Shown: positions 1 to 12,903 of the stretch, piece by piece
How the letters are laid out: the number at the start of each line of letters is the position of its first letter
How positions within the stretch are numbered: position 1 is the stretch's first letter
From: a virus
Taxonomy: Duplodnaviria > Heunggongvirae > Uroviricota > Caudoviricetes
Length of the DNA stretch: 12,903 nt
Reading direction: 5' to 3' (one strand)
Virus record (IMG/VR): IMGVR_UViG_2531839662_000018
Span: 1-12,903 of that record
The notes under the pieces: model-generated
Databases searched by the model: none
Seen by the model: the letters and a program-made list of their open reading frames with translations, nothing else
Told to the model about the DNA's origin: nothing
Position numbers and translations under genes: made by a program

Positions 1-1242
1 ATGGCACGAAAAACCACCCCACTAACCATTACGGAGATCAAAAACGCACGACCAGGGGAAAAGGAATACACCCTGCAGGATGGTGGAGGATTATTTCTTC
101 TGGTGAAACCCTCCGGATCAAAAATCTGGCGTTTTACGTACTATCGCCCGGCAGATAAAAAACGGACTATCATCAGCCTCGGATCGCTGAATGATGTTTC
201 CCTGTCCGATGCCAGAGAACGACGGAATGAATACAGGTCACTCATAGCGAAGGGAGTTGACCCACAGGACCACGAACGCCGGAAACGTGAAGCAGAGAGT
301 CGGAAAAAGGGCAACACGTTCGAAAAAGTTGCCTCGGACTGGTACGAGATGAAAAAAGGCCAGAATCTGGCTTACAACACGATTAAGGATATCTGGCGAT
401 CCCTGGAAAAATACGTATTCCCGTACATCGGAAACACGCCAATAGATACCCTCACAGCTCGCCGCTTTGTTGAGATACTCACACCCATTAAAGCACGCGG
501 CAACCTGGAAACCCTGAAACGCGTTTTACAACGCATCAATGAAGTGATGGATTTTGCTGCCAACAGTGGGCTGATTGACATCAACACCGCCGCGAACGTC
601 CGCAAGGCATTCCCCTCACCCACCAAAAAGCACATGCCAACCATCCGACCGGAACAGCTACCGCAGCTAATGCACGATTTATCGGTCGCCAGCATAGAAC
701 GGCAAACCAGATTGCTGATTGAGTGGCAACTGCTGACCGTAGCACGCCCAGCCGAAGCAGCCGCCGCACGCTGGGAAGAAATAGATCTCGATGCCGAAAC
801 CTGGACGATTCCAGCCGGACGCATGAAGATGCGCCGTGACCATGTGATCCCTCTTTGCGGTCAGGCGATGGCTGTACTGGAAACAATGAAGCCAATCAGC
901 GCACACAGGGAACATGTTTTTCCCAGCCTTAAAAATCCAATGCTGCCAATGAGCAGCCAGACCGCTAACGCTGCATTGCGCCGGATGGGATACGCTGGTG
1001 TGCTGGTGTCTCACGGATTACGCGCCATATTCAGTACAGCAGCGAACGAGGAAGGATTCGAGCCGGACGTAATCGAGGCCGCACTCGCACACGTGGACAC
1101 GAACGAGGTAAGGCGAGCATATAACCGAAGTAACTACCTGGAAAAGCGCGTGGTGCTTATGCGCTGGTGGGGGGAATTTGTAGAGGCCGCAGCTACCGGA
1201 GTGACCATAGCCAGTGGTAAAAGGGGTATCCGTGCCGTGTAA
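1..1242 (+). CDS. int: P4-type tyrosine integrase/recombinase (413 aa)
   Basis: Full ORF from ATG at position 1. N-terminal arm-binding region with the DGGGL motif typical of P4-family integrases (KEYTLQDGGGLFLLVKPSGSKIWRFTYY). C-terminal catalytic region has HGLR, a later AHV, and the nucleophile Tyr in RRAYNRSNYLEKRVVLMRWW. Identified by eye from conserved motifs. Confidence 0.95.
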   Translation: MARKTTPLTITEIKNARPGEKEYTLQDGGGLFLLVKPSGSKIWRFTYYRPADKKRTIISLGSLNDVSLSDARERRNEYRSLIAKGVDPQDHERRKREAESRKKGNTFEKVASDWYEMKKGQNLAYNTIKDIWRSLEKYVFPYIGNTPIDTLTARRFVEILTPIKARGNLETLKRVLQRINEVMDFAANSGLIDINTAANVRKAFPSPTKKHMPTIRPEQLPQLMHDLSVASIERQTRLLIEWQLLTVARPAEAAAARWEEIDLDAETWTIPAGRMKMRRDHVIPLCGQAMAVLETMKPISAHREHVFPSLKNPMLPMSSQTANAALRRMGYAGVLVSHGLRAIFSTAANEEGFEPDVIEAALAHVDTNEVRRAYNRSNYLEKRVVLMRWWGEFVEAAATGVTIASGKRGIRAV

Positions 1243-1340
1243 CTGTACAAAAAGCCAGTGCAACCAGTGAAAACCATGCCAAACCATCGTATAATTGCCA
1301 CAAATTTAACGACAAGGCCGGAGTATATGAAAATTCTATT

Positions 1341-1571
1341 ATGCAAAATACCACCGCCTACGGCGAAGGCCTGCAACTGGCCTTAATGGCAAATCGTGAA
1401 TTCTGGTCAACGTACGATCCGGAAGACAAATCAACAGCCCCCACAAAACACGAGGTAGTCAGTTTTTTGCGCTCGCGTGGCGCATCGAAAAATCTGGCTG
1501 AAAGCATCGACAAGGTGCTGAGACCCACCAGCCTTAAATGCGGTGGACGACCTAAGAAGTGGAAGCGGTAA
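1341..1571 (+). CDS. hypothetical small protein (76 aa)
   Basis: Open frame between int and alpA with a protein-like, charged composition. Its stop is followed immediately by an intrinsic terminator. The ribosome-binding site is weak: the nearby GGAG (1319-1322) is better placed for a 19-codon ORF at 1327. A TATAAT hexamer lies at 1290-1295. Confidence 0.4.
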   Translation: MQNTTAYGEGLQLALMANREFWSTYDPEDKSTAPTKHEVVSFLRSRGASKNLAESIDKVLRPTSLKCGGRPKKWKR

Positions 1572-1576
1572 TCACA

Positions 1577-1607
1577 ATAGCGGCCCTTTGCGGTCGCTAT
1601 TTTTTTG
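1577..1607 (+). terminator. rho-independent terminator after the int / small-ORF unit
   Basis: A roughly 9-bp stem (ATAGCGGCC / GGTCGCTAT, one G.T pair) with a CTTTGC loop, followed directly by a T7 run (1600-1606). Confidence 0.6.
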
Positions 1608-1636
1608 CAAAAAGAAAAGCGTAATCAATGAGATAA

Positions 1637-1676
1637 AAAACAGTGGGTACCGTTTTAAAACGGTGGGTACTGTTTT
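1637..1676. promoter_or_regulatory. two tandem 20-bp near-palindromic sites upstream of alpA (candidate operator)
   Basis: AAAACAGTGGGTACCGTTTT (1637-1656) is followed directly by AAAACGGTGGGTACTGTTTT (1657-1676), 18/20 identical. In each unit the 8-bp arms are inverted repeats of one another. They lie about 65 bp upstream of the alpA start. Confidence 0.4.
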
Positions 1677-1741
1677 TCCCGCCCTGCCCTGTTTTACCGT
1701 ATTTATCACCGGAATACGCCGGATTAACGAGGTAAAACATA

Positions 1742-1948
1742 GTGGAAACAATCAGAAAAATCCTTACCCGTCAGGAAGTAAAAAATATTCTGCGCATCAA
1801 GGCAGACAGTTCGCTACAGGACATGATCAACGCCGGAAAATTCCCGAAAGGCTTCAAAATCGGTCTGCGTCGTGTTGGCTGGTATGAAGATGAGGTGCTG
1901 GCCTGGCTGAAAGAACGCGAGGAAGAAGCGCGCGGAACGGCTGCGTAA
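1742..1948 (+). CDS. alpA: AlpA-family (excisionase-like HTH) transcriptional regulator
   Basis: 68-codon ORF with a GTG start and a GAGGT Shine-Dalgarno about 10 nt upstream. The sequence fits the AlpA pattern (FPKGFKIGLRRVGWYEDEVLAWL), and int followed by alpA is the canonical order in these islands. Confidence 0.85.
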   Translation: METIRKILTRQEVKNILRIKADSSLQDMINAGKFPKGFKIGLRRVGWYEDEVLAWLKEREEEARGTAA

Positions 1949-1967
1949 TGGTGTGAGGCGTAACGCG

Positions 1968-2954
1968 ATGAACATAACAAAAAGCGCCCCGTTGCCGGAG
2001 CGCCTTTGTGAACGAATAGCCTACTGCGCCATATTGCTTACTGTCTACGAGGCAGATTATAGCGTTGTGGTCGCACAGAGTGAAGGCGCTGATCACCGTT
2101 ACTACAGCACGCCAGAAATGCAGAATATTTTGCTGCAAAATGCCGTTGGTCACGCCGTCCGGAAAGCAAAAAATTTTGCTGGTGGCGCGACTGATGCGAT
2201 TTTGTCAGGTCGCCAGGTGCTGATCAATCTGATGTCTGATTTCGTTCTGGATAAAACAAAGGCGACCGCAGAGAGCCGCCAGTGGAAAAGCTACATACTT
2301 GAACGCATCACCAACAATGCCACATTTGCGGCTGGTGGGCAAAGCGTAACCGGAAAAAAATTCCGGTGGGGCTATTCCTGCTCTTTGGCCTTGCGACGCT
2401 GGCGGTATTCAACTTCTCGCTTTAATGCTGCTGTTACAAACTGCCCTGTACTTTCACCAGGCATTTTTACCGCCTCAACATTGTTCATAACTTCATGCGG
2501 AACCCTTGCCGCAACTGTTTGTGATTTTGCGTTTACTGCTTTTGTTGCCATGTTGTGTACCCCTTACAAAAAACAAATGCAGTATGCAGGAAAAAAAATA
2601 AGTGTTCAACACTTGACGTGTTTAACACCAGGGCTTAAATTGGTGTTCAACACCTTACTGATGCAAGGTGCAGAAACGACGAAACCCGGCAGTGCGCTAA
2701 CACTAACCGGGCTTCTAACCACCAACGATAGAAAGCGTATCGAGGTAGCTATGAGAAATTATACCAGACACCCGCAAGGGCGGGACTCGTACAACCTGAA
2801 TAAATACATCTGGCGTTTTATCGCCCTGAGCACGGCACAACCGCGCGTGATTCACATCGTGGCCACCAGCGAACAGGAAGCACGCCAGCAATCCCCGGCT
2901 GGCTGCGTGATGGTATTCGCTGCCCGTATTCGCCAGGAGGTACGCCATGATTAA
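1968..2954 (+). CDS. long stop-free frame (328 aa from ATG 1968); probably a composite, not one protein
   Basis: The 5-prime 400 nt has a GAGG ribosome-binding site 9 nt upstream and coding-like, purine-rich first codon positions. The middle (2372-2654) reads as Cys/Ser/Thr/Phe-rich junk, is antisense to a well-formed RHH ORF, and contains three perfect palindromes plus a promoter. The 3-prime 204 nt (ATG 2751, GAGGT site) ends in an ATGATTAA overlap with the next gene. A gene finder would likely call the whole ORF; I consider that call doubtful. Confidence 0.3.
   Translation: MNITKSAPLPERLCERIAYCAILLTVYEADYSVVVAQSEGADHRYYSTPEMQNILLQNAVGHAVRKAKNFAGGATDAILSGRQVLINLMSDFVLDKTKATAESRQWKSYILERITNNATFAAGGQSVTGKKFRWGYSCSLALRRWRYSTSRFNAAVTNCPVLSPGIFTASTLFITSCGTLAATVCDFAFTAFVAMLCTPYKKQMQYAGKKISVQHLTCLTPGLKLVFNTLLMQGAETTKPGSALTLTGLLTTNDRKRIEVAMRNYTRHPQGRDSYNLNKYIWRFIALSTAQPRVIHIVATSEQEARQQSPAGCVMVFAARIRQEVRHD
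2372..2551 (-). CDS. ribbon-helix-helix (Arc/CopG-like) transcriptional repressor candidate, 59 aa
   Basis: Minus-strand ORF MATKAVNAKSQTVAARVPHEVMNNVEAVKMPGESTGQFVTAALKREVEYRQRRKAKEQE, below the ORF-track length cutoff. It has a beta-strand/helix/helix RHH pattern, an AAGGGG Shine-Dalgarno 8 nt upstream, and G/A-rich first codon positions, while the opposite strand looks antisense. It is transcribed divergently from the adjacent palindromic operators. Confidence 0.55.
   Translation of the reverse strand: MATKAVNAKSQTVAARVPHEVMNNVEAVKMPGESTGQFVTAALKREVEYRQRRKAKEQE
2601..2654 (+). promoter_or_regulatory. rightward sigma70-like promoter overlapped by three palindromic operators
   Basis: Palindromes AGTGTTCAACACT (2601-2613), GTGTTTAACAC (2618-2628) and GGTGTTCAACACC (2642-2654). 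Candidate -35 TTGACG (2613-2618) and -10 TTAAAT (2635-2640) with a 16-bp spacer. One operator sits just upstream of the -35, one in the spacer and one just after the -10. Confidence 0.55.
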
Positions 2955-3312
2955 CCTGTCAATTTCTGACCTTAACAGCATTCAGTTTGATGAGAAATTC
3001 ACCGGGCAGCTACTGGTTAACGTGGAGAATGGACGCGTGGCAAGTAATTATCACCTGCCGGATGGTGCAATTGCCGGAAGCGTTGAAGCATTGCTGGAGC
3101 TGGCAGAACGTGCGCGACTGATTAAGCCGTTAACGAGCCATCACGATGATGATCTGCATTTTACCGGACGCATGGTGAGTCACTACGAAAACGGCGTTGA
3201 AGTATCCCGAGAACGGCTGCGAGATGATTGCTGTTTCGGAACACTGCCGGAATTTATCGAATTGCTGACCAGTTGCGGTTATCAGGTTATTCAGGGGGTG
3301 AATCATGGATAA
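2947..3312 (+). CDS. hypothetical protein (121 aa); paralog of the next gene
   Basis: Strong AGGAGG Shine-Dalgarno 6 nt upstream. The start overlaps the upstream frame stop (ATGATTAA). Its N-terminal half resembles the downstream 66-aa protein. Confidence 0.75.
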   Translation: MINLSISDLNSIQFDEKFTGQLLVNVENGRVASNYHLPDGAIAGSVEALLELAERARLIKPLTSHHDDDLHFTGRMVSHYENGVEVSRERLRDDCCFGTLPEFIELLTSCGYQVIQGVNHG

Positions 3313-3505
3313 TCAGCAAGCAACAATGACAATTACCCTGAGTGTGCCAGATGATTTCACCGGACGCATACTGGTTTACCTGGATAAAGGGAAAGTGAAA
3401 TCACAATGCCGACTGAAAAGTAATGAGATTGTTGGTTCTCCTGAATTTTTTTCTGAACTCTGTATTCGTGCGGAAATAAAACCGGAACTGCTGACAGGAA
3501 AATAA
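3305..3505 (+). CDS. hypothetical small protein (66 aa); paralog of the N-terminal half of the previous gene
   Basis: Overlaps the previous gene by 8 nt, with a GGGGGTG ribosome-binding site. The two proteins share an alignable block (DDFTGRILVYLDKGKV ... IVGSPEFFSELCIRAEIKP versus DEKFTGQLLVNVENGRV ... IAGSVEALLELAERARLIKP). Confidence 0.7.
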   Translation: MDNQQATMTITLSVPDDFTGRILVYLDKGKVKSQCRLKSNEIVGSPEFFSELCIRAEIKPELLTGK

Positions 3506-3509
3506 AACC

Positions 3510-3809
3510 ATGAAAAAGAAAAATTCTGGCTTTACTGCCAGTGGTCTCCCTCGGCCTGAAATCCGCCCCGGCGATATTTTCCGGGATAACTACGGCGGCA
3601 CGGTAACGATTAAAAGTATTGCCGGACGGTGCGTTACTTACCGCCGTGATGGGTACAGCTACGACTGCGTGATGCCTGTTTATCAGTTCCGGCGTGATTT
3701 TTCACTGATACAGGCCACACCACGCAAACAGCCCACCAGCAACGCAAAGGCACGGGCAAATATTCAGAAAATGAAAAACATGATTAACGCATTCAGGGGC
3801 ACAAAATGA
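3510..3809 (+). CDS. hypothetical protein (99 aa)
   Basis: Tightly packed in the operon; its stop overlaps the next start (ATGA). No family recognised. Confidence 0.7.
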   Translation: MKKKNSGFTASGLPRPEIRPGDIFRDNYGGTVTIKSIAGRCVTYRRDGYSYDCVMPVYQFRRDFSLIQATPRKQPTSNAKARANIQKMKNMINAFRGTK

Positions 3810-5221
3810 AACTGGCACCGAACTTAAAAAAACAGCCACACGACAAAATGACCGAAGTCATTATTTTTGCGGGTAGTGATGCCTGGGCGCACGCGAAACA
3901 GTGGCAGGAGCAGGACGGGCGACTTGCTGGCGACAACGTGCCGCCTGTATGGCTGGGAGACAGCCAGCTTGACGAACTGGCAGACCTGAAAATTATCGAC
4001 GATGGTCGCTATTGTGTCCGGCTGTACAAGGCAGGCCACATCAAGCCGTCAAATATTAACGCCATCGGGCAAAAGCTGGCGGCGGCAGGTGTACGGGATG
4101 CGAATTATTACCCCGAGGGAATGCACAGCCAGAAACGCGAGGAGTGGCGCGAATATCTGGAACGAGAGCGCCAGAAAAGACTGTCCGGAGAGATACCAGA
4201 GGAAGAAAAAAACGACCAGCGAAAAACCACACTGCCAATGAGTATTGGATCTGCAGGGTACGACACACAGCTTGATTATGTCGTTAAGGGCGTGATTCCG
4301 GCTAATTCATTGTGCAGCACATACGGCGCGAGCGGTTCCTATAAATCGTTCCTCGCGTGTTCCTGGGCGTGTCATGTTGCCACGGGTCGCCACTGGGGAG
4401 GCCGCAGGGTGGCGCATGGTTCGGTGATGTATGTCGTCGGTGAAGGTGGCATTGGTGTCCCTCGTCGTATCAAAGCATGGGAAATCGTTAATGATGAACG
4501 GGTGAAAAATCTGTACCTGGTAAACCGCCCGATTTTTCCGGCGGTCCCGCTTGATGTTGATGAAATGGTCATCGCTTCCCGTCAGGTTGAACGGGAAACG
4601 GGTAAACCGGTACGCATGATTATTCTGGATACGCTGGCGCGTTGCTTTGGCGGTAATGATGAAAATGACGCGCGGGATATGGGGGCGTTTATCCGTGGAT
4701 GTGACGAACTGAAACGACGCACAGGGGCTACGGTACTGGTGGTTCACCATTCCGGCAAGGATGAAACAAAAGGGGCGCGTGGTTCCAGTGCATTTCGTGC
4801 ATCTCTGGACGCTGAATACCGTATTCGCCGTGAAGGTGCGGACAGTGAAGCCCTGGTTATCTCCTGCACCAAAATGAAGGACGCGGAGGAACTGAAAGAG
4901 GCTGCATATGATTTACGCGTGGTGGAGCTTTTTACCGACACTGACGGGGAGTTAATCACGTCGCTGGTGGTTGTGGATAAGCCGCGCCCACCTGTTGAAC
5001 TGGAACGCATCGAGGAGGCCGGGAACAAGACGGAAAATCACGCTGCGCTATGGCAGTGCATCAGAACGCGAACAGCACACGGGGAGGCGTGCACTATCGC
5101 CCTTCTCCGCGATGATATGAAAAAGCTGGGGTATGAAATGAAAAACTTCCGGCGCTGGCTGTACAAGCTGGAAAGCGACGGCGTAATCGCTATTGACGGT
5201 GATTATGTGCGCCCACTGTAA
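3806..5221 (+). CDS. replication protein with RepA-like RecA-fold helicase/ATPase domain (471 aa)
   Basis: P-loop-like YGASGSYKSF, Walker-B-like MIILDTLARCF and the LVVHHSGKD motif typical of RepA/AAA_25-type replicative ATPases. The N-terminal domain of about 160 aa is of unknown type. The gene is followed immediately by an iteron array. Confidence 0.85.
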   Translation: MKLAPNLKKQPHDKMTEVIIFAGSDAWAHAKQWQEQDGRLAGDNVPPVWLGDSQLDELADLKIIDDGRYCVRLYKAGHIKPSNINAIGQKLAAAGVRDANYYPEGMHSQKREEWREYLERERQKRLSGEIPEEEKNDQRKTTLPMSIGSAGYDTQLDYVVKGVIPANSLCSTYGASGSYKSFLACSWACHVATGRHWGGRRVAHGSVMYVVGEGGIGVPRRIKAWEIVNDERVKNLYLVNRPIFPAVPLDVDEMVIASRQVERETGKPVRMIILDTLARCFGGNDENDARDMGAFIRGCDELKRRTGATVLVVHHSGKDETKGARGSSAFRASLDAEYRIRREGADSEALVISCTKMKDAEELKEAAYDLRVVELFTDTDGELITSLVVVDKPRPPVELERIEEAGNKTENHAALWQCIRTRTAHGEACTIALLRDDMKKLGYEMKNFRRWLYKLESDGVIAIDGDYVRPL

Positions 5222-5612
5222 AAAGTGAGGAGCAAAAGTGAGGATGGCGGGTAATTTAACAAAAAATCAACGCCACTCCTCACTTTCTCACCTGTATATA
5301 GGTCAAAAAGTGAGGAATGAAAAACATATTGTAAAACAAGACATTACAACAACAAGAAAAACAGGTGAGGAGCAGGACGGGAATAACAAAAAGTGAGGAA
5401 CAAAAGTGAGGAATGGTGAGTTAATAGAAATGAGGTAATAAAAATAACAGGTAGGTTAAAAAACACACCATGCAAGATATTAACTAAAACTTAACTATTT
5501 ACCTCACTTTTGCGTATATATAAGGATTAAAAAGTGAGTACTTAAAAATACATTTAAAATCATATTGTTATTAACTTCATAAATTTTCACTGTGCAGCAG
5601 GTGAGGAATTAA
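5221..5612. repeat. iteron array / candidate replication origin
   Basis: At least nine copies of the core AAAGTGAGGA, with CAGGTGAGGA variants, in both orientations (for example 5221-5232, 5235-5245, 5278-5287 reversed, 5305-5319, 5361-5372, 5387-5399, 5402-5415, 5501-5510 reversed, 5598-5610). They are embedded in AT-rich DNA with no ORF, directly downstream of the rep gene. Confidence 0.75.
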
Positions 5613-5687
5613 AAAATCAGGAATGTTAAAAATGAAAACAGAATGTTGTGTCAGTGCCGTTGGGCAACGTAGCAATCAGTAAAAACG

Positions 5688-6230
5688 ATGGGGCAAAGCA
5701 TGACTAAGCTGACCATTAACAGAAAACCTAAAGGCATTTACGGCACGCCGCAGAAAACGACGCAGGCGGCGCAGGAGCAGGATAAAACCACGTCGGCGCA
5801 TAAAGTGATGCCCGGTAACCAGAAAGCGCAGCAGAAGCCCACAGGGGCGACACCGTGGCGGCATATGACCAAACGCCAGCGCAAAAACCGCAGGCGCGTT
5901 AACCGCCTTATCGAACTGTGGCCAGAATTATTCAGCCGGGAAGCACCGAAGCCGCTTAAGGTGGGGATATTTGACGACCTGATGCAGGATCTCGCCGTCA
6001 GGGGGCTGGCATTCGGGCCAGGGGCATTACGTGCGACGCTGGCATCTTATGCGCAGTGTCCGCGCTATTACCGCGCCTTAATGGCTGGTGGGGTACGCTA
6101 CGACCTGAAAGGCCAGCCGTGCGGCGAGGTGACACCACAGGAACAACAGGACGCAGAAACGCGGCTGGTGGCGCTGAATGAGAAGCGCAAACGTCAGCGC
6201 CGGGCAGCAAAGGAGAAAACAGGCGCATGA
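5688..6230 (+). CDS. ProQ/FinO-domain RNA-binding protein
   Basis: The central region (PLKVGIFDDLMQDLAVRGLAFGPGALRATLASYAQCPRYYRALMAGGVRYDLKGQPCGEV) matches, from memory, the conserved ProQ N-terminal/FinO domain. Basic Lys/Arg-rich N- and C-terminal tails. An alternative start at ATG 5700 has a better GGGG ribosome-binding site. Confidence 0.85.
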   Translation: MGQSMTKLTINRKPKGIYGTPQKTTQAAQEQDKTTSAHKVMPGNQKAQQKPTGATPWRHMTKRQRKNRRRVNRLIELWPELFSREAPKPLKVGIFDDLMQDLAVRGLAFGPGALRATLASYAQCPRYYRALMAGGVRYDLKGQPCGEVTPQEQQDAETRLVALNEKRKRQRRAAKEKTGA

Positions 6231-6514
6231 TTCACGACAGCAAAGCGGAAGCACTGGAAGCGCGTGGTCTGTACCGGAGAGCGGCGGCGCGGTGGGCTGA
6301 GGTCATCATGCTGGCGAATGATGACAAGGCACGGGAACAGGCGGCAAAACGTCGCGCGGAATGTATCCGCAAGGCAGCACGCCCACCAGCACGGCAGGAT
6401 AATTTCGGGGAGATGCGCGAAACCATCAGCCGGGCACATGCCGGGATGGGATTACATCAGCCCAATGGTAAGGCATTCAGGAAATACCCTGGATCGAAAA
6501 ATTGCAGTCAGTGA
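6227..6514 (+). CDS. PerC-like small transcriptional regulator candidate (95 aa)
   Basis: The start overlaps the previous stop (ATGA). The N-terminus (KAEALEARGLYRRAAARWAEV) resembles the conserved opening of PerC-family regulators, recalled from memory without alignment. Basic, Arg-rich protein. Confidence 0.6.
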   Translation: MIHDSKAEALEARGLYRRAAARWAEVIMLANDDKAREQAAKRRAECIRKAARPPARQDNFGEMRETISRAHAGMGLHQPNGKAFRKYPGSKNCSQ

Positions 6515-6519
6515 CGGAG

Positions 6520-6544
6520 GCCGGGATTTTTCCCGGCTTTTTTG
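6520..6544 (+). terminator. rho-independent terminator 1 after the ProQ/FinO-PerC unit
   Basis: 7-bp stem GCCGGGA / TCCCGGC with a TTTT loop, followed by TTTTTTG. Confidence 0.75.
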
Positions 6545-6555
6545 TGCCAGTAAAA

Positions 6556-6590
6556 AGCCCGCAGCCAGAAGTGTTGCGGGCTTTGTTTTT
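6556..6590 (+). terminator. rho-independent terminator 2 (tandem)
   Basis: 8-bp stem AGCCCGCA / TGCGGGCT with an 11-nt loop, followed by TTGTTTTT. Confidence 0.7.
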
Positions 6591-6715
6591 CAGGTGATTG
6601 AAGTCAATGGGAAGAACGCGATCATCATGCGTTATTGTTTCATAAATTGCAATGATGTAGATCGTCATTTCAGTTTGTGCAATCATAATCGTTGTTTTGT
6701 TCAGGAGATATGACT

Positions 6716-6889
6716 ATGAGAAAAGCCAGCGTGAAACCCGTTTTACTCGCTCGTGAGCAGATTGAAGCATTACAGCGCATCCAGGACGAGGAACGCCGCA
6801 ATTCTCCGCTGGGGATTGCTCCGAGCATTCATGAGGTCGCCCGGCGTTTAATGCAGCGGGCGCTTTATCCCGTAGAACGTCCGGCCTGA
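6716..6889 (+). CDS. hypothetical small protein (57 aa), first gene of the downstream operon
   Basis: ATG at 6716 with an AGGAG Shine-Dalgarno (6703-6707, 8-nt spacing). The ORF-track start at 6692 lacks a ribosome-binding site. An AT-rich promoter-like region lies at 6600-6700. Confidence 0.55.
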   Translation: MRKASVKPVLLAREQIEALQRIQDEERRNSPLGIAPSIHEVARRLMQRALYPVERPA

Positions 6890-6928
6890 TGGTCGTGATT
6901 TTTTGGTGAAAAAAGAGAGGTGGTAACA

Positions 6929-7513
6929 ATGCCAGCAAGCAAAGAAGATTTGCGATTAAAACTGATGGAGGTGGTTAACGCTCTGTCAGAGTCGCAGGGC
7001 AGCACTCCGCAGGAGATTATCGAAATTCTGAATGCGATCCCCGCACAGGATTTCACAAAAGCAGATGAGGACAACGCGAATCAAAACATCGTCGCGTCAG
7101 TCGAAGATGAATCCTCACTGGCAGAAGCCCAGGCTAAAGCAGATTCCGCATACAGCAATATGGGCCGTCGCGCTCCAGCCCCGTTTGCTGGTGAAAAGTC
7201 GATGGATTACCGCAAGCGTGCATTAATTGGTGCACAGAAGCTGGCTAAAAAATTCAGTGATGTGGATATTCGTTCCGTTTCAGATTCTGCAACGCTGGCG
7301 GTGCTGGAAGATCAGATTTACCAGGCTGCAAAAGACAGTGTTCAGTGGGCCGTGGAAAACACGCCGGGCCATTTGGGTAAAACCGTAAGAATGGATGAAG
7401 CTGGTCGTCGTATTACTGAATATCAGGGCGATCCGAACGTCTGGCTGAACGCCTTCAAAATCCCTCCCCGTCGCCTGGTCAAAATTAACACTGCAAGCCT
7501 CGCGGGGGCATGA
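6929..7513 (+). CDS. hypothetical protein (194 aa)
   Basis: ATG at 6929 with an AGAGAGG ribosome-binding site 8 nt upstream; the ORF-track start is a GTG at 6920. Acidic N-terminal half. No family recognised. Confidence 0.75.
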   Translation: MPASKEDLRLKLMEVVNALSESQGSTPQEIIEILNAIPAQDFTKADEDNANQNIVASVEDESSLAEAQAKADSAYSNMGRRAPAPFAGEKSMDYRKRALIGAQKLAKKFSDVDIRSVSDSATLAVLEDQIYQAAKDSVQWAVENTPGHLGKTVRMDEAGRRITEYQGDPNVWLNAFKIPPRRLVKINTASLAGA

Positions 7514-7577
7514 AAAACGTGCTGAGTTCAGCCCTGCCGGATTTGGCGGGGCTTATTGCTTATAACCGGATAACATT

Positions 7578-8249
7578 ATGCTTTTAACAGAAATTGAGGC
7601 GGCAAAGCAGATTCGGGACGGTCAGCTACCGTCGCCTTATCAGTTTTCCAACATGTGGCTGGTTAACCTGCGTATTACAGGAACCGGTATGGCCTACCGC
7701 GCCGAAGAAAAAGAATTTGTCTGGCGTTCACCGCAAACTTATCTCAATCCGCAGTTCCTGGAACGTTGCGCCGGAGTACCCGTCATTATCGACCATCCCG
7801 AAGGCAAAACCATTGAAGACGTTGGCGAACGGTCGCGCATTATTGGCACCGTCATGTTGCCGTATATTCGCGGTGACGAGGTGTGGGGTGTATGCCGGAT
7901 TTACGGGCAGGAAATCATCGATTACATCCAGAAAGCACGGGGGGAGGTATCCACCAGCCCGTCGGTTGTGTTTTGTGGTGCGTCCGGTGGGGCAGAAGTT
8001 CCTGATGTAATGGGCGAGGACAATTTTTTCATTGAGGGTACGCCATTCCTTATCGATCACGTTGCGCTCGTGCCGCTTGGTGTTTGGGATAAGGGCGGGA
8101 AACCATCGGGTGTGGAGGTAACAACGCCGACAGCAGAAGAACAGCTCGCCGGAATGGTCCGGGACGTTATTGATGCGGCCTGCAAGCCAGCCCTGGAAAA
8201 ACTGGAAGAAATATCCGGGCGGCTGGCTCAACTGGAAAAAACAGAGTGA
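7578..8249 (+). CDS. hypothetical protein (223 aa)
   Basis: Protein-like composition; only a weak ribosome-binding site. A faint resemblance to phage prohead-protease-like folds (PVIIDHPEG ... IGTV ... EVSTSPSV) is too weak to call. Confidence 0.75.
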   Translation: MLLTEIEAAKQIRDGQLPSPYQFSNMWLVNLRITGTGMAYRAEEKEFVWRSPQTYLNPQFLERCAGVPVIIDHPEGKTIEDVGERSRIIGTVMLPYIRGDEVWGVCRIYGQEIIDYIQKARGEVSTSPSVVFCGASGGAEVPDVMGEDNFFIEGTPFLIDHVALVPLGVWDKGGKPSGVEVTTPTAEEQLAGMVRDVIDAACKPALEKLEEISGRLAQLEKTE

Positions 8250-8256
8250 GTGAATC

Positions 8257-8874
8257 ATGAAAATTGCTAAAAACTTAAATCTGATTATCCCTGTGCGCAC
8301 TGAAAAGGGAAATGGCTGGATCCATGCCACGCCGATCAGCAAAGAGGTGTTTAAAGAGCATTTCTTCATCCTGAGTAAAACCTTTTCTGCCATTTTTTCT
8401 GAAGGTCTTGGTGTTGTTGCGGGTCCGCGCGTTGCCTGCCTTATGCTGGAGAAAATCTCCCGTGACTCCGGTTTATGGGATGGGGAGAAAGGCATACGTA
8501 ATACGCTCATAAACGAAATTATTCGCCTGGCAAACCTTGTTTATCCAGTGGAGGGCAAAGGCTACGACACAATCCCTCTCGATATGGCGCTGGAGCGTGA
8601 AATCGTTGATTTGGACGAAGTGGCGGGTGAACTTGTTTTTTTTACATGCGTCTCGTCGATAAATTCCCCGGAGCAGACGAAGGGGACTATGGATGCGGTG
8701 AATGGAATATGGAGCACTCAATGCTCGTCCTTGAGTCTTACGGAATGGATCGCTTCATTGCCGACATTGAAGCCTGCCGTCAGTTCTGGCGCGACGGCGA
8801 ACACGTCATCAGCGACATCCTCGACTACTCAGCCGGAGCCGGATTCAGAGACATCTGTGCAGATTCCGGTCTGA
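8257..8874 (+). CDS. hypothetical protein; zero-frame product 205 aa, candidate upstream partner of a -1 frameshift pair (G-like)
   Basis: The first 129 codons are protein-like. After the T8 run (8636-8643) the zero frame becomes Ser/Thr-rich low complexity until its stop at 8874, while the -1 frame carries a well-formed ORF. Confidence 0.6.
   Translation: MKIAKNLNLIIPVRTEKGNGWIHATPISKEVFKEHFFILSKTFSAIFSEGLGVVAGPRVACLMLEKISRDSGLWDGEKGIRNTLINEIIRLANLVYPVEGKGYDTIPLDMALEREIVDLDEVAGELVFFTCVSSINSPEQTKGTMDAVNGIWSTQCSSLSLTEWIASLPTLKPAVSSGATANTSSATSSTTQPEPDSETSVQIPV
8636..8643 (+). other. T8 homopolymer forming a U UUU UUU slippery heptamer (candidate -1 programmed frameshift site)
   Basis: Zero-frame codons GTT TTT TTT ACA. 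A -1 slip re-pairs both tRNAs on TTT and continues as TAC ATG into the frame of ORF 8646-8939. Confidence 0.4.
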
Positions 8875-8939
8875 ATGTAAAAACAGCAGCTCAGTTTCGT
8901 GAGCTGCTCAAATTCAAAAATCCCGCAGGAGTATTGTAA
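8646..8939 (+). CDS. -1 frame ORF (97 aa from its first ATG), probably the C-terminal extension of a frameshift fusion (GT-like)
   Basis: This frame opens at 8631 just before the slip site. Its stop overlaps the start of the 679-aa gene (TAATG). Protein-like composition (FIADIEACRQFWRDGEHVISDILDYSAGAGFRDICADSGLNVKTAAQFRELLKF). Internal ATGs at 8709 and 8721, the latter with a GGAG ribosome-binding site, allow independent initiation as an alternative. Confidence 0.5.
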   Translation: MRLVDKFPGADEGDYGCGEWNMEHSMLVLESYGMDRFIADIEACRQFWRDGEHVISDILDYSAGAGFRDICADSGLNVKTAAQFRELLKFKNPAGVL

Positions 8940-10978
8940 TGTCAGGTAATCAGATGCCAGTTCTAACGCTGGACGTTAATGAAGAACACCTCAAACGGCT
9001 TGAGGCAATTTTTGAAAAGTATCGCAACGGGCTGATGATCGGCCCTGCCGGAACGCCGATGAAAATACCGGGGCAAAGTGGGCGCAGCGTGGGGGCAGGC
9101 TTACCCGTGGCGGCAAAATCTGGTCGGACAGGACCGGATGTATCCGGGAGAGTGAGGGACGAAAAAGGGCGCTTTGTCGGCAGCGGAAAAACAGCAGATT
9201 CGTTCGTAAGCAACTATAAAGGTCGCGGCGAAACGATGTTTGATAAGTATCTCAGCGGGCTGGGGAAAAATGCCCAACAGACGCTGAAAACTTACAAGCA
9301 GATCAATTCTACACTACAGACGACCACTTCAAGATTAAACAACCTGTTTAAAACAACCGTATCGTGGGGAACAAAACTCTCGGTTATGGGCGTTGCCGGA
9401 CCGTTTGGCTTTGGCATGATGTCCCGTAGTGTTGTAGAGAAACAGAAAAATGCAGATGAGCTGGTGGCAACGCCAGGAGAGTTAAAGGCGGCAGAAAGCA
9501 CTTATTCGCCTTATTTTTCCGGTGTTGGCAATGTGCTCAATACACTGGCAGCAGCACAAAATGATATATCGCATCCTGCCCGCGTCGGCCTGCTTAATCT
9601 GGGGCTAAATCCTGATAAAAACGCGACTGAAAACCTGCCTGTATTCCTGAAAAAGGTTGCAGCGCTGGCAAAGGAATATCAGGGAACTGGTCTTACCCAG
9701 AGCAATTTCAGAGGAATGGGGCTTGGATGGGTAAATTTTGGTCTTACTAACCAGTTAGTCAAATATCAGGACAAAATACCTGAACTCAACAAAGAGTTTT
9801 CGTTACGTGCAGCGCAGAATGATTCGTTACTGACCTCTGCACATACAAGTAAATATCAGAATCTTACCAGTAACCTGGAAAAAAACTGGGATCGGCTTAC
9901 CAGCGGATTTCAGGGAGCAATGGCGGGGAATGAAGACGCTTTAATCAGAATGTCTGATGGTACCACGAATGCTGCCCTGAATTTCATGAATGGTGAGAAC
10001 TTTAAAAGGATTCTGACTGATGTTGAAACGGGGCTGGATAAACTTGGTAAGTACGTTAATGGCCCGGATTTTAATAACGACCTGAACAATTTTGCCGAAA
10101 ACGTTGCAAAGGTCACCAAGGCACTTAGCGGATTTGTTGGTTTTGCCGTTGAACATCCCTGGCTTTTTGGGGCCGCAGTGCTTGCGGGGCCATCAAGAGT
10201 TGGTGCCGTGGCAGCCACAACAACCGGAGTTGCCGCTCGTGTTGTCGGTGGAAGTCTTCTTGGGGCTACAGCCGGAACAGTAGCAGGATTGGCTATTCCT
10301 ACAAATAACACACCTACCACCAGTGAGGAAATGAAAGGGCTGGAGGGGCGTTTCAACTTTGATTATTTTAACGAAGTGCAGGAGTGGCAAAAAAACAATC
10401 CGGGTAAGGTCTGGCCTGGAGGATTGCAGGGATTTTCAAATCAAGTAAACAGATCTGCATATTTATCCAGAGGGATCAGGAATAACAATCCCGGAAATCT
10501 TAATTTCGCAGGACAAAAAGGGGCTACTCTGGAATCGGGGCCAAATGCCCGTTTTGCCAGCTTCCCGACGATGCTGGAAGGCATTGCCGCCTTAGATCGG
10601 CAGGTAATGCTATACCTGAAACGCGGCAAAAATACGATTGATCAGATTATTGATATTTATGCCCCTTCATCTGATGGAAATAACACATCGTCCTATAAAA
10701 GCTATCTTTCTCAGTACACCGGATTAGGTGTTAAGGAGAAAATTGATGGTTCTAATTTTGAGGTCATGAAAAAGCTAATTCAGGGCATTATTAACCATGA
10801 AAATGGTGCTGCCGCTAAAGCTGTAAGTGTTGAAGATGTGATCCGGGCGCTGGCTATGAATCGTGGGATTGTCCCTGCAGCAGGAAACAATGATCAGAAC
10901 GTTAAGTTGGAAATTGTTCGGAACGCTGGTGCCGATTACTTCGCGCAACTAATTGGTGCTCAACGGTTCCTGGGATGA
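8939..10978 (+). CDS. large protein (679 aa) with Gly/Ala-rich hydrophobic core; tape-measure-like candidate
   Basis: Strong AGGAG ribosome-binding site, coupled to the upstream ORF. An Asn/Thr/Gly-rich N-terminal 400 aa. A hydrophobic segment FAVEHPWLFGAAVLAGPSRVGAVAATTTGVAARVVGGSLLGATAGTVAGLAIP (nt about 10143-10300). A C-terminal domain of about 220 aa containing the motif RGIRNNNPGNL (nt about 10471-10503). Confidence 0.9.
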   Translation: MSGNQMPVLTLDVNEEHLKRLEAIFEKYRNGLMIGPAGTPMKIPGQSGRSVGAGLPVAAKSGRTGPDVSGRVRDEKGRFVGSGKTADSFVSNYKGRGETMFDKYLSGLGKNAQQTLKTYKQINSTLQTTTSRLNNLFKTTVSWGTKLSVMGVAGPFGFGMMSRSVVEKQKNADELVATPGELKAAESTYSPYFSGVGNVLNTLAAAQNDISHPARVGLLNLGLNPDKNATENLPVFLKKVAALAKEYQGTGLTQSNFRGMGLGWVNFGLTNQLVKYQDKIPELNKEFSLRAAQNDSLLTSAHTSKYQNLTSNLEKNWDRLTSGFQGAMAGNEDALIRMSDGTTNAALNFMNGENFKRILTDVETGLDKLGKYVNGPDFNNDLNNFAENVAKVTKALSGFVGFAVEHPWLFGAAVLAGPSRVGAVAATTTGVAARVVGGSLLGATAGTVAGLAIPTNNTPTTSEEMKGLEGRFNFDYFNEVQEWQKNNPGKVWPGGLQGFSNQVNRSAYLSRGIRNNNPGNLNFAGQKGATLESGPNARFASFPTMLEGIAALDRQVMLYLKRGKNTIDQIIDIYAPSSDGNNTSSYKSYLSQYTGLGVKEKIDGSNFEVMKKLIQGIINHENGAAAKAVSVEDVIRALAMNRGIVPAAGNNDQNVKLEIVRNAGADYFAQLIGAQRFLG

Positions 10979-11029
10979 TTTAAATACACGCGCTTTCCGG
11001 CGCATTAATACAGTCTGAGGGGAAGTGTC

Positions 11030-11554
11030 ATGTTTATGAGCAAGGCAGAATATGCCAAACACAAAGGCGTAAGCCGCCAGACAGTTTACGACTGGATCGA
11101 GAAAGGCGAAGTGGTCATGTCCGGTAAAAAAATCGATGTGGAAGCGACAGAGCAGCGGAACAGCCCACCAGCACAGGGAAAAGATACCGTTTCTGAAATG
11201 TGGCCAGAGAGAACGCTGGAAATGACGTGGGGCGAGTTCTGGAAAGCAGTTAAGGCCAGAGACGGTAAAATCCCTGCACCAGTAACGGACGATGACATAC
11301 AGCAGCGTGTGCAGGATGCAGCCGGGGAATTATGCTGTGAAGTGCAATTTCTTGATGATGGTGCTATCTGCCTTGAGGATTATGCTGGGCAATATTACTT
11401 TGAGCAGTATGATTTTCGGGAAAATGCCAGGCTGGCAATTCGTATGCTGCGTTGTGAGCTCTGCTATGTTGCAGGTGATTGTCCCGATGAGCTGGATAAC
11501 TGGAGTGAAGCCGGACTAAACGCCCTGGCTGAGTGGGAAAAATCATCCCATTAA
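11030..11554 (+). CDS. HTH DNA-binding protein (174 aa), excisionase/terminase-small-subunit-like N-terminal HTH with Cys-rich C-terminal domain
   Basis: GAGGGGAAG ribosome-binding site. The N-terminus (KAEYAKHKGVSRQTVYDWIEKGEV) is a classic HTH of the Xis/AlpA/TerS-Nu1 type. The C-terminal half has six Cys (CCEVQF ... CLEDY ... CELCYVAGDC). Confidence 0.8.
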   Translation: MFMSKAEYAKHKGVSRQTVYDWIEKGEVVMSGKKIDVEATEQRNSPPAQGKDTVSEMWPERTLEMTWGEFWKAVKARDGKIPAPVTDDDIQQRVQDAAGELCCEVQFLDDGAICLEDYAGQYYFEQYDFRENARLAIRMLRCELCYVAGDCPDELDNWSEAGLNALAEWEKSSH

Positions 11555-11565
11555 TGACCGTAAAA

Positions 11566-11857
11566 TTCGCGAAAAGTGTCAAGTCAGGCCGTCTGCCGGG
11601 TTGACACTTTACACTCTGAACGCGAAAAAGTGTCAACCTCGCTGTAAACCCCGCCGTTACTGGCTTTGCGCCAGATTTACCACGTCAAAAAGCCGAAAAA
11701 ATCGCGAAAAGTGTCAAGTTGCCATGCTTAGAAATGCTAAGGTTTGATAAGGTTTTTCGCGAAAAAGTGTCAAGTGTGTCAACCTGCGATGTTAAGGTTT
11801 GTTAAGGTCTTAAGCCGGAAAGTGTCAACCAGCCCCCTAAGATTTCCTAAGGTGTAA
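11566..11857. repeat. array of two interleaved short repeat families (candidate protein-binding or packaging/origin-like site)
   Basis: Family 1 is CGCGAAAAGTGTCAAG and variants (11566-11584, 11621-11638, 11702-11720, 11757-11784, 11817-11830, plus an inverted copy TTGACACTTT at 11601-11610). Family 2 is (C/T)TAAGGT(T/C)T in six copies (11738-11757, 11791-11814, 11836-11857). The region has no ORF. Confidence 0.7.
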
Positions 11858-11860
11858 ATC

Positions 11861-12040
11861 ATGACCATCACCGAAGCCGATATGCTGGAGATGATCCGCA
11901 GCATTGCCGGAATCAGACAACCAGCAAGCAAAATTAACAGGTGTTCAGCGCCTGTTTCCGTTGTGCTGCAACAGGAGCGCCACCAGCATGATGATGTGAG
12001 GCCGTATCAGTGGCGGAAACCGGACAGGCCGCGACGGTGA
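11861..12040 (+). CDS. short paralog (59 aa) of the terminal gene, with an internal deletion
   Basis: MTITEADMLEMIRSIAGIRQPASK ... RPYQWRKPDRPRR. Both ends are homologous to the 94-aa protein at 12619-12903 by eye at DNA and protein level, but about 40 central residues are missing. It has an AAGGTG ribosome-binding site and is below the ORF-track cutoff. Confidence 0.45.
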   Translation: MTITEADMLEMIRSIAGIRQPASKINRCSAPVSVVLQQERHQHDDVRPYQWRKPDRPRR

Positions 12041-12148
12041 GCGGAGCGTTCGGTAAGGCTACAGCCAAGCCTTACATTAAGCCTACGGGTAACCCTTCGA
12101 AGGGGCTTTAAAGGGGAGATGATTATCCTTACCCGTTGATAAACAAGC

Positions 12149-12168
12149 AAACCTCAAATTTGAGGTTT
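12149..12168. promoter_or_regulatory. perfect 20-bp palindrome AAACCTCAAATTTGAGGTTT (one of a pair)
   Basis: Perfect inverted repeat. A related copy AAACCTCGATTTGAGG lies at about 12349-12364, roughly 200 bp downstream. Confidence 0.4.
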
Positions 12169-12466
12169 GTATCTGCCTGACTTATTTTTGTGCTAAGTTG
12201 TTGATATATCCGACGACGCAAAATTGCGCTGGCTACATCCCTCACATCTGAGGACTGTTAACCAGCAGGCCGGAATATATTCACAAACTACGAAATTTTC
12301 GCAGTTTAATTACTCGCCAGCTTAATCGCTAACCCACTGATATTTTCGGAAACCTCGATTTGAGGAGACCGGAACGTCTACATGACTGCATCACCATAAC
12401 GATTTCCGTTACAGTTGATGTGCTTTTTTGCTGGTAAGGCCTAACCCGTTGATTCTTCCACAATTC

Positions 12467-12518
12467 CCCATTGGGGGAGGCTGGGCGGCCTGCTGTGGAC
12501 TTTTCCACCATTGGTGGG
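12467..12518. promoter_or_regulatory. pair of related palindromes upstream of the terminal gene (candidate operator)
   Basis: CCCCATTGGGG (12467-12477) and CCACCATTGGTGG (12506-12518) share the core CCATTGG, with centres 40 bp apart, about 100-150 bp upstream of the ATG at 12619. Confidence 0.4.
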
Positions 12519-12618
12519 AAACATGGCACCACATCCACCAGCTTAAACGCGCTTCACCTTCCCGTTATCAGTCGCCACAATTACGGCATTGTTTCCCCAT
12601 CCTCTGGAGGCCATGACA

Positions 12619-12903
12619 ATGACCGAAGCCGAAATGCTCAAAATGATTCGCCAGATTGCCGGGATCAGACCACCAGCAGGCAAACAGGAGGCCACGCAGC
12701 CGGACAGCGTGATAGCCGAAAATTACGCGCGTGTGGTGGCTGAGGTGATGCGCCGTGACGGTATCGAGCTTAACGGCGTTGATATGCGCGACATACGAAT
12801 CAGAGTTCTGGAGATGTTGTCATATCGTCGCCGCGTGGAGATGTACCGGGAGAGCGAGAAAAAGACTTACCAGTGGAAAAAACCGGAGCGGCTGCGTACG
12901 TAA
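12619..12903 (+). CDS. hypothetical small protein (94 aa)
   Basis: ATG at 12619 with a GGAGG Shine-Dalgarno at 8-nt spacing; the ORF-track starts at 12589 and 12613 lack a good ribosome-binding site. Highly charged, protein-like sequence (MTEAEMLKMIRQIAGIRPPAGKQ ... KTYQWKKPERLRT). The stop is the last codon of the window. Confidence 0.75.
   Translation: MTEAEMLKMIRQIAGIRPPAGKQEATQPDSVIAENYARVVAEVMRRDGIELNGVDMRDIRIRVLEMLSYRRRVEMYRESEKKTYQWKKPERLRT

Follow-up and report, generated by a model that had tools for sequence, protein, structure and literature searches.

The Stop-Free Frame Downstream of alpA

The subject of this analysis is a long stop-free reading frame in a stretch of viral DNA of 12,903 nucleotides (nt) (IMG/VR record IMGVR_UViG_2531839662_000018, positions 1 to 12,903). 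This whole stretch, hereafter the window, is identical to an island of approximately 13 kb adjoining tRNA-Pro between yejM and yejO in Escherichia coli UMNF18; coordinates refer to it unless a related locus is named. The gene order of the island is integrase, a small open reading frame (ORF), alpA (1742-1948), the long-frame region, a chain of small genes, and a gene for a RepA-type helicase, which is the layout of a phage-inducible chromosomal island (PICI) or P4-like phage satellite. On the plus strand, 333 codons from 1953 to 2954 are free of stops, while the other two plus frames contain 21 and 15 stops and the minus frames 10-14 each over the same 1002 nt. When the segment was shuffled (20,000 shuffles), a mean of 15.8 in-frame stops was obtained, and no shuffled sequence had fewer than two. 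Translation of the frame, which resembles the eta gene of satellite P4, would start at the ATG at 1968, located 20 nt past the alpA stop and preceded by a GAGG at 1955-1958, and would cover 328 codons (1968..2954); the open stretch itself begins at 1911, inside alpA.

The frame is composed of three unlike sections, as had been recognized in the first-pass annotation. In its first section of about 400 nt, which has the start site just described, 65% of the first codon positions in 1968-2342 are purines, a coding-like bias that is also found in int, repA, and alpA (64-69%). In the middle section, 36% of the first positions in 2343-2551 are T; this section lies antisense to a real gene of the YlcI/YnfO family and runs across three copies of an operator-like palindrome. 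The last 204 nt are separately initiated and encode a product matching the Icd-like protein family.

Several structured modules are located in the first section. At 1980..2007, 12 nt downstream of the long-frame ATG, a 12-bp GC-rich hairpin with a minus-strand T run resembles a terminator and may represent the end of the leftward (YlcI) transcription unit; few modules are as widely shared as this one, which occurs in 40-48 of the loci compared. Block A2 (2031..2250, plus strand), which is open without amino acid constraint, occurs in only about 19 of the loci compared. It is followed by a widely conserved module (2251..2342) that contains a minus-strand terminator (stem 2261-2280, T tail 2251-2260), a further hairpin (2319-2332), and a Chi site (2331-2338). 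The folding z-score of this module is -3.1 on the minus strand and -0.27 on the plus strand, and in many relatives the long-frame ATG is found directly before it.

The hairpin noted earlier at the transition to the middle section exists, albeit as CCGGAA-AAAAA-TTCCGG at 2350-2366 with a 5-nt loop, and not at 2351-2367 with a loop of 3 nt. On the minus strand, it follows closely on the YlcI stop, and among 178 loci its exact 17-mer is confined to the source genome (L001, L004) and L007. The mosaic junction suspected at this place (2343-2369) is real, because the window lacks a segment that is seen in the relatives L002 and L003, which carry 207 and 258 extra bases, respectively, between window positions 2342 and 2370. 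The junction form of the window (query 2300-2420, at least 80% coverage) was found in 22 of 5,426 complete E. coli genomes. A minus-strand gene of 62-66 amino acids and unknown function (phrog_21027) is present in L002 (2649-2837) and L003 (2892-3092) and absent from the window (2342-2370). The same gene lies downstream of YlcI in many relatives, and the long plus-strand frame is open across it, too.

Conservation of the Open Frame among Relatives

Related loci were gathered by the Icd-like domain alone and not by ORF length, which yielded 80 IMG/VR loci. In about 70 of these, an in-frame run of 190-606 codons, with about 40 different lengths, is found upstream of the Icd domain, compared to 3-4 codons in the other two frames. 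A scan with a single protein gave 8 loci; the run amounts to 233-310 codons, versus 0-40 codons in the other frames, in seven species representatives of other genera (E. ruysiae, Cedecea, Enterobacter, Intestinirhabdus, Superficieibacter, Rahnella, and Rosenbergiella). The frame is open over 402 codons in L002 and 420 codons in L003 despite the insertions, whose 207 and 258 nt are both multiples of three; the corresponding values in more divergent variants are 411 codons in L005 and L008, 291 codons in L006, and 324 (approximately 300) codons in a Klebsiella satellite.

Openness is kept in each part of the frame. Opposite the YlcI gene, 41 of the 43 distinct nucleotide versions share one phase with 0 in-frame stops, and the other plus frames contain 1-8 and 0-6 stops. 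By synonymous resampling of 12 YlcI variants that are less than 70% identical, each variant is open in 13-89% of the cases, which corresponds to a joint P of about 1e-4.6. The three types of spacer between YlcI and the Icd-like gene have almost nothing alignable in common, and the probability of being open, as estimated by dinucleotide shuffling, is 0.013-0.052 for each of them and at most 0.005 for the upstream segments. All six spacer lengths (178-205 nt) leave a remainder of 1 on division by three. At the upstream end, at least eight junction types have an in-frame ATG at -7 to +20 nt from the stop of the preceding gene, in most cases together with a ribosome-binding site; the preceding gene varies among the relatives, being alpA, antA, or another plus-strand gene.

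Distribution of Amino Acid Constraint

Counted by codon position, the variable sites show a coding pattern in alpA (16/8/26) and in the Icd-like gene (12/16/35), and those of YlcI, counted by its own codon positions (32/20/45), indicate constraint at the protein level. The counts are flat in block A, which comprises the first 400 nt of the frame (8/8/7, 19/19/19, and 11/13/14, the second set referring to block A2), and in the spacer (40/46/51); protein-level constraint was found only in alpA, YlcI, and Icd. Given the flat distribution, the amino acid sequence preceding the Icd start is not conserved as such. Selection on the first 260 codons would, judging from this pattern, keep the absence of stops and not the peptide, although the latter could have a role that is independent of its sequence.

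The first 400 nt gave no family match in Pfam, NCBIfam, or PHROGs. When the first 125 residues were compared with 1.84 billion representative proteins, 19 matches were obtained, 17 of which are variants of the same locus; the other two are unrelated repeat proteins and were judged spurious. A truncated ancestral gene downstream of alpA, as had been proposed for this region (1968-2342), left no sign, and a tblastn search against phages was likewise without a parent gene. An AlphaFold model from a shallow alignment has a mean predicted local distance difference test (pLDDT) score of 30.5, with values below 50 for residues 1-295; it is uninformative as a structure and agrees, weakly, with an unconstrained peptide. 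A protein of about 330 amino acids with conserved homologs over the whole frame had been named in the first-pass annotation as evidence against a chimera; such conservation is seen for the reading frame and not for the amino acid sequence.

The Opposite-Strand YlcI Gene and a Candidate Internal Promoter

The YlcI/YnfO-family gene (2372..2551, minus strand; 59 amino acids; phrog_949) lies wholly inside the long frame, and this is so in nearly all relatives. Its product matches NF041551 with an expectation value (E) of 2e-16 and 59.7 bits against a cut-off of 30. From its sequence pattern, the protein appears to be ribbon-helix-helix-like, and it is a probable repressor of divergent promoters. 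It may bind to the three palindromes GTGTT(C/T)AACAC at 2602-2613, 2618-2629, and 2643-2654. Interleaved with these palindromes is a predicted sigma-70-like promoter on the plus strand (2613..2641; TTGACG, 17-nt spacer, TAAATT) with 9/12 consensus matches, which is a candidate for the internal promoter of the Icd-like gene and the replication operon. A promoter for YlcI itself that was picked by eye (TTGAAC-17-CATACT, minus strand 2609-2581) has no more than 8/12 matches and is not put forward here.

The Icd-Like Gene and the Antisense Element over Its Start

The nested Icd-like (Kil-like) gene (2751..2954, plus strand; 67 amino acids; phrog_6196) has its own GAGG at 2742-2745 and is annotated by the NCBI pipeline PGAP. 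Its product matches NF033153 with an E value of 5.5e-20 and 71.2 bits against a cut-off of 25; in the translation of the whole frame, the match covers residues 285-328 (E 4.3e-19). The internal ATG and the ribosome-binding site are kept in seven other genera. Division inhibition or killing by the Icd-like protein would be a putative function; literature support is indirect and concerns a relative. In Escherichia ruysiae (L091 2164-3198), the nested product is far longer, with about 65 extra residues between the conserved start and the domain. The Icd-like families phrog_6196 and phrog_1743 are labelled "transcriptional repressor" in PHROGs; this label was probably inherited from the old annotation of a P4 ORF as "cI gene product", the immunity factor of P4 being an RNA.

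The ribosome-binding site of the Icd-like gene is covered by a predicted cis-antisense small RNA of about 78 nt on the minus strand (2673..2750), consisting of hairpin 1 (2742-2726), hairpin 2 (2711-2685), and a U-rich tail (2684-2673). In an alignment of 34 sequences from eight genera, 93.9% of the cells pair, and 12 of the 16 pairs have compensatory changes; none of 500 shuffles reached this covariation, and pairing is 29-47% in slid controls. The element has 55 G-U pairs when the minus strand is read, as opposed to 8 on the plus strand, where pairing drops to 85%. The G-U count makes the minus-strand RNA the likely functional form. The plus-strand leader at 2640-2765 also folds better than its shuffled versions (z = -2.8), but the covariation and the G-U counts speak for the minus strand. 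A match to the Rfam family symR extends over the full model length and is weak (32.8 bits versus a gathering score of 61, E 4e-4 to 5e-3), and the element is treated as a predicted cis-antisense RNA and not as a member of the SymR family. In the literature searched, no description of this predicted RNA was found. From an extended -10 element, TGGTATAAT, at 2766-2758 on the minus strand, inside the first Icd codons, transcription of the antisense RNA would begin near 2750; E. coli-type relatives retain TGGTATGAT or TGGTATAAT, a conservation that may in part be due to the Icd codons.

Comparison with P4 eta/kil and Other Known Systems

In P4, a constitutive promoter is located inside eta, and Kil is the truncated, nested form of the product (PMC10111431, summarising Forti et al. 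1999, J Bacteriol 181:5225). The late promoter upstream is the sole source of full-length Eta, whose translation is coupled to that of the alpA homolog, and Eta translation prevents termination (PMC10111431). The eta ORF of P4 (L010 8812-8168, minus strand) comprises 214 codons, and its start ATGs overlap the stop of the alpA homolog vis. NF033153 matches residues 161-208 of its product (E 1.4e-20). P4-type loci, which served as a positive control, keep the eta frame open over 115-156 codons in 77 of 80 cases, and the counts of variable sites by codon position amount to 64/66/67 before the Kil start, compared to 13/10/40 in kil and 25/22/62 in vis.

The window frame bears this signature, too. 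In both cases, a long ORF is located at the stop of an alpA or vis gene (overlapping it in P4, 20 nt past it in the window) and upstream of the replication genes; it ends in an Icd-like domain of the NF033153 type, contains a shorter nested product with its own start in the same frame, and encloses control elements. The frame is kept open, with flat substitution over the codon positions upstream of the nested start. The two differ in length, with 328 codons in the window and 214 in eta, and in their control elements. P4 eta includes the C4-type CI RNA and its seqA target on the same strand, for which the window has no match, whereas the window frame holds the opposite-strand YlcI/YnfO gene, the palindromic operators, and the minus-strand antisense element. 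The Rfam models RF01695, RF01394, and RF03163 (C4, isrK, and c4-a1b1) are all found in P4; none had a match, with E thresholds of 10 for 1900-3000 and of 1 for the whole window, and none reached the gathering score in 14 related loci. A C4/CI or isrK RNA inside the frame, as in P4, was consequently discarded after searches at these permissive thresholds. In a BLASTP comparison of the window frame with P4 eta, no similarity was detected (E 8.6), so the connection between the two is made through the Icd-like domain model and the gene layout only.

The immI locus of phages P1 and P7 (c4-icd-ant, Rfam RF01695) offers another parallel. There, too, an Icd-family protein comes first in the operon, its start is guarded by a small antisense RNA, and the downstream genes are translationally coupled. 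The c4 RNA of P1 is encoded upstream on the same strand and acts through short complementary boxes; translation of ant is coupled to that of icd and controlled by this antisense RNA. In contrast, the candidate RNA of the window is cis-encoded on the opposite strand, and the Icd-like gene is the tail of a much longer frame. The SymR/SymE type I toxin-antitoxin system (RF01809) shares with the window an opposite-strand RNA of about 77 nt with two hairpins over the ribosome-binding site and the start of a small growth-inhibiting protein. It differs in that the score of 32.8 bits is far under the gathering score, and that the partner in the window is Icd-like and not SymE.

Proposed Function of the Long Frame

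The feature is best described as a variant form of the P4 eta/kil nested-gene arrangement. It is probably a nested gene of the eta/kil type, belonging to a satellite of the P4 family or PICI type that is integrated at tRNA-Pro, and its translation would carry alpA-driven transcription into the replication operon; the purpose of the frame would most likely be translation as such and not the synthesis of a particular protein. Two translation starts would be used in one frame: from 2751, the 67-amino acid Icd-like (Kil-like) protein would be made, while from 1968 ribosomes would read some 260 unconstrained codons, antisense through YlcI, over the operators and the promoter, and over the antisense RNA site, before reaching the same Icd-like C-terminus. 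The following mechanism is proposed by analogy with P4. In the quiescent island, YlcI would hold the internal promoter down and the antisense RNA would block the Icd ribosome-binding site. Once alpA is transcribed, translation of the long frame would keep ribosomes on the transcript from 1742 to 5221, with no gap of more than 20 nt. Without it, a C-rich stretch of about 800 nt with several hairpins would stay untranslated (it includes a G-poor segment at 2400-2530, where the C/G ratio is approximately 1.8 on the plus strand), and translation would shield this stretch from premature, Rho-type termination. The ribosomes would also melt the hairpins, drive transcription against the YlcI gene, and pass the target of the antisense RNA. 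In this way, alpA-driven transcripts would reach the replication genes regardless of YlcI, thereby bypassing the YlcI-controlled internal promoter. If this scenario is true, the P4 eta principle of a gene that is made to be translated would extend to a large PICI/P4-like group in the Enterobacterales, where it is combined with another kind of immunity module and with the complete overlap of a sense and an antisense gene.

A more general proposal can be put forward only tentatively. According to it, ORFs of this kind would form a "conduit" class that is widespread in enterobacterial satellites, several hundred codons long and selected for openness alone, with ribosome traffic as the switch. Such an ORF would be translated from the alpA transcript through the convergent YlcI/YnfO gene, its operators, and the SymR-like antisense RNA that guards the start of the Icd toxin; the traffic would keep the induction transcript from being terminated, run up against expression of the repressor, and overcome the antisense RNA. 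The result would amount to a protein-repressor version of the RNA-based immunity bypass of P4.

Several observations weigh against the proposed function of the frame. Four of the loci with a short run (L059, L061, L069, and L073) have a long frame that is split by one frameshift, and the frame is reduced in length in relatives with another repressor module in place of YlcI (L007, L030); because of these broken or shortened versions, openness is not indispensable. Many of the loci are closely related, so locus counts overstate the number of independent events, and the P values for dereplicated types are safer. If single observed variants are placed in the context of the window, would-be stops arise twice in block A and 12 times in the spacer, which aligns poorly; they are attributed to context and alignment. 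The test is suggestive for block A and the anti-YlcI part (2 versus 18 and 14) but not clean in the divergent spacer, and it is given little weight. The argument for translation of the upstream 260 codons is stop avoidance alone. Since the C4/CI RNA and the seqA target, which are central in P4, are absent, the termination logic may differ from that of P4. Finally, the internal promoter has 9/12 matches only, and sigma-70-like sites in the promoter region are about as dense as in shuffled sequence.

The original view of the frame as an accidental chimera, in which the remnant of a truncated gene, a shadow frame of YlcI, and a small Icd-like gene have come into phase by chance and form a functionless annotation trap, is highly improbable. 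The unlike composition of the three sections would fit with it, as would the omission of the long frame from the current PGAP annotation of the source genome and its breakage in a few relatives; furthermore, the middle is dictated by the YlcI codons, and a single YlcI variant may well be open in this phase. Against this stands a stop-free state that is conserved across at least 12 YlcI variants, three unalignable spacer types, six frame-preserving spacer lengths, at least eight start junctions, and seven other genera, and that persists through in-frame insertions and deletions. The truncated parent gene was not found, and the P4 eta/kil arrangement has the same signature. The part at 2372-2551 lies opposite a real gene, as is the case for an ordinary shadow ORF, but ordinary shadow ORFs do not extend through spacers and modules, do not keep their phase across insertions and deletions, and are not conserved across genera.

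A genuine long protein, with a functional N-terminal extension of about 260 residues that would serve as a disordered tether, sensor, or degron on the Icd-like effector, would account for the conserved frame and its good start, and NCBI names such products as proteins. It is nevertheless unlikely, considering that substitution is flat over the codon positions in the N-terminal and spacer parts, that modules are swapped or deleted among relatives regardless of their peptide content, that the middle peptide is fixed by the opposite-strand gene, and that no family or domain was found; the pLDDT values below 50 for residues 1-295 add weak evidence. Not very probable either is a purely translational role, in which ribosomes arriving from upstream would unwind the antisense duplex or structure at the Icd start, leading to Icd synthesis or to coupling downstream, and Rho would have no part. 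The covariation-supported antisense element over the Icd ribosome-binding site and the start/stop overlaps all along the operon speak for such a role. It does not explain why the frame reaches back about 800 nt to the alpA stop where a short upstream ORF would do. It is compatible with a frame that carries alpA-driven transcription into the replication operon.

Annotation of the Locus in Databases

As had been anticipated, gene finders call the whole frame: the exact 328-amino acid product is present in NCBI as "Icd-like protein" on 106 contigs (NCBI protein P0001, identical over 328 amino acids). On the practical side, annotation of these islands is currently inconsistent at the long-frame locus, where an "Icd-like protein" of 67, 134, 310, or 328-435 amino acids is called, YlcI/YnfO is sometimes dropped, and N-terminal pieces appear as pseudogenes. 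Examples from RefSeq are found in L005 (1749-2681), L002 (2533-2878 and 3058-3462), L007 (1520-1753), and L008 (1520-2107). They include a 310-amino acid "Icd-like protein" without a YlcI call, 134-amino acid versions that overlap the YlcI start, a 67-amino acid version, and "Icd-like" pseudogene fragments directly after alpA.

Genetic Setting of the Island

The alpA gene (1742..1948, plus strand) encodes an AlpA/Vis-type helix-turn-helix regulator (Pfam PF05930, Phage_AlpA, 4.5e-8), and its stop at 1946-1948 directly precedes the long frame. Upstream of it, at 1640-1680, two GTGGGTAC repeats flank the palindrome ACCGTTTTAAAACGGT; a regulator of the alpA promoter may bind to this array. The Rfam int-alpA RNA (RF02996) was found in L091 (117-185) and L030 (284-351) and not in the window.

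Downstream of the Icd-like gene, the plus-strand chain consists of orf121 (2947-3312), orf66 (3305-3505), a DUF4222 gene (3510-3809), and the gene for the RepA-type helicase (3806-5221), followed by genes for ProQ/FinO, PerC, and DUF2213, among others. From alpA to repA, the starts and stops of neighboring genes overlap or lie side by side, and the Icd stop at 2954 overlaps the next gene, whose ATG is at 2947. Start-on-stop overlaps (ATGATTAA and similar) occur at 2947-2954, 3305-3312, and 3806-3809. From this arrangement, the genes from Icd-like to RepA helicase would appear to be one translationally coupled chain.

The Chi octamer GCTGGTGG is present in 16 copies in the 12.9 kb, compared to 0.48 copies expected from shuffles (0 of 200 shuffles reached 16). 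The copies are located at 1163, 2178, 2331, 4963, 6084, 6164, and 9460 on the plus strand and at 1525, 2863, 3733, 6383, 7951, 11165, 11980, 12535, and 12670 on the minus strand. This abundance may protect the satellite DNA from RecBCD while it is being replicated or once it is packaged. Within the long frame, the copy at 2331 codes for the AAGGQ motif, and a plus-strand Chi is found in 75 of 93 long frames, those of other genera included, usually 74-89 nt downstream of the terminator tail.

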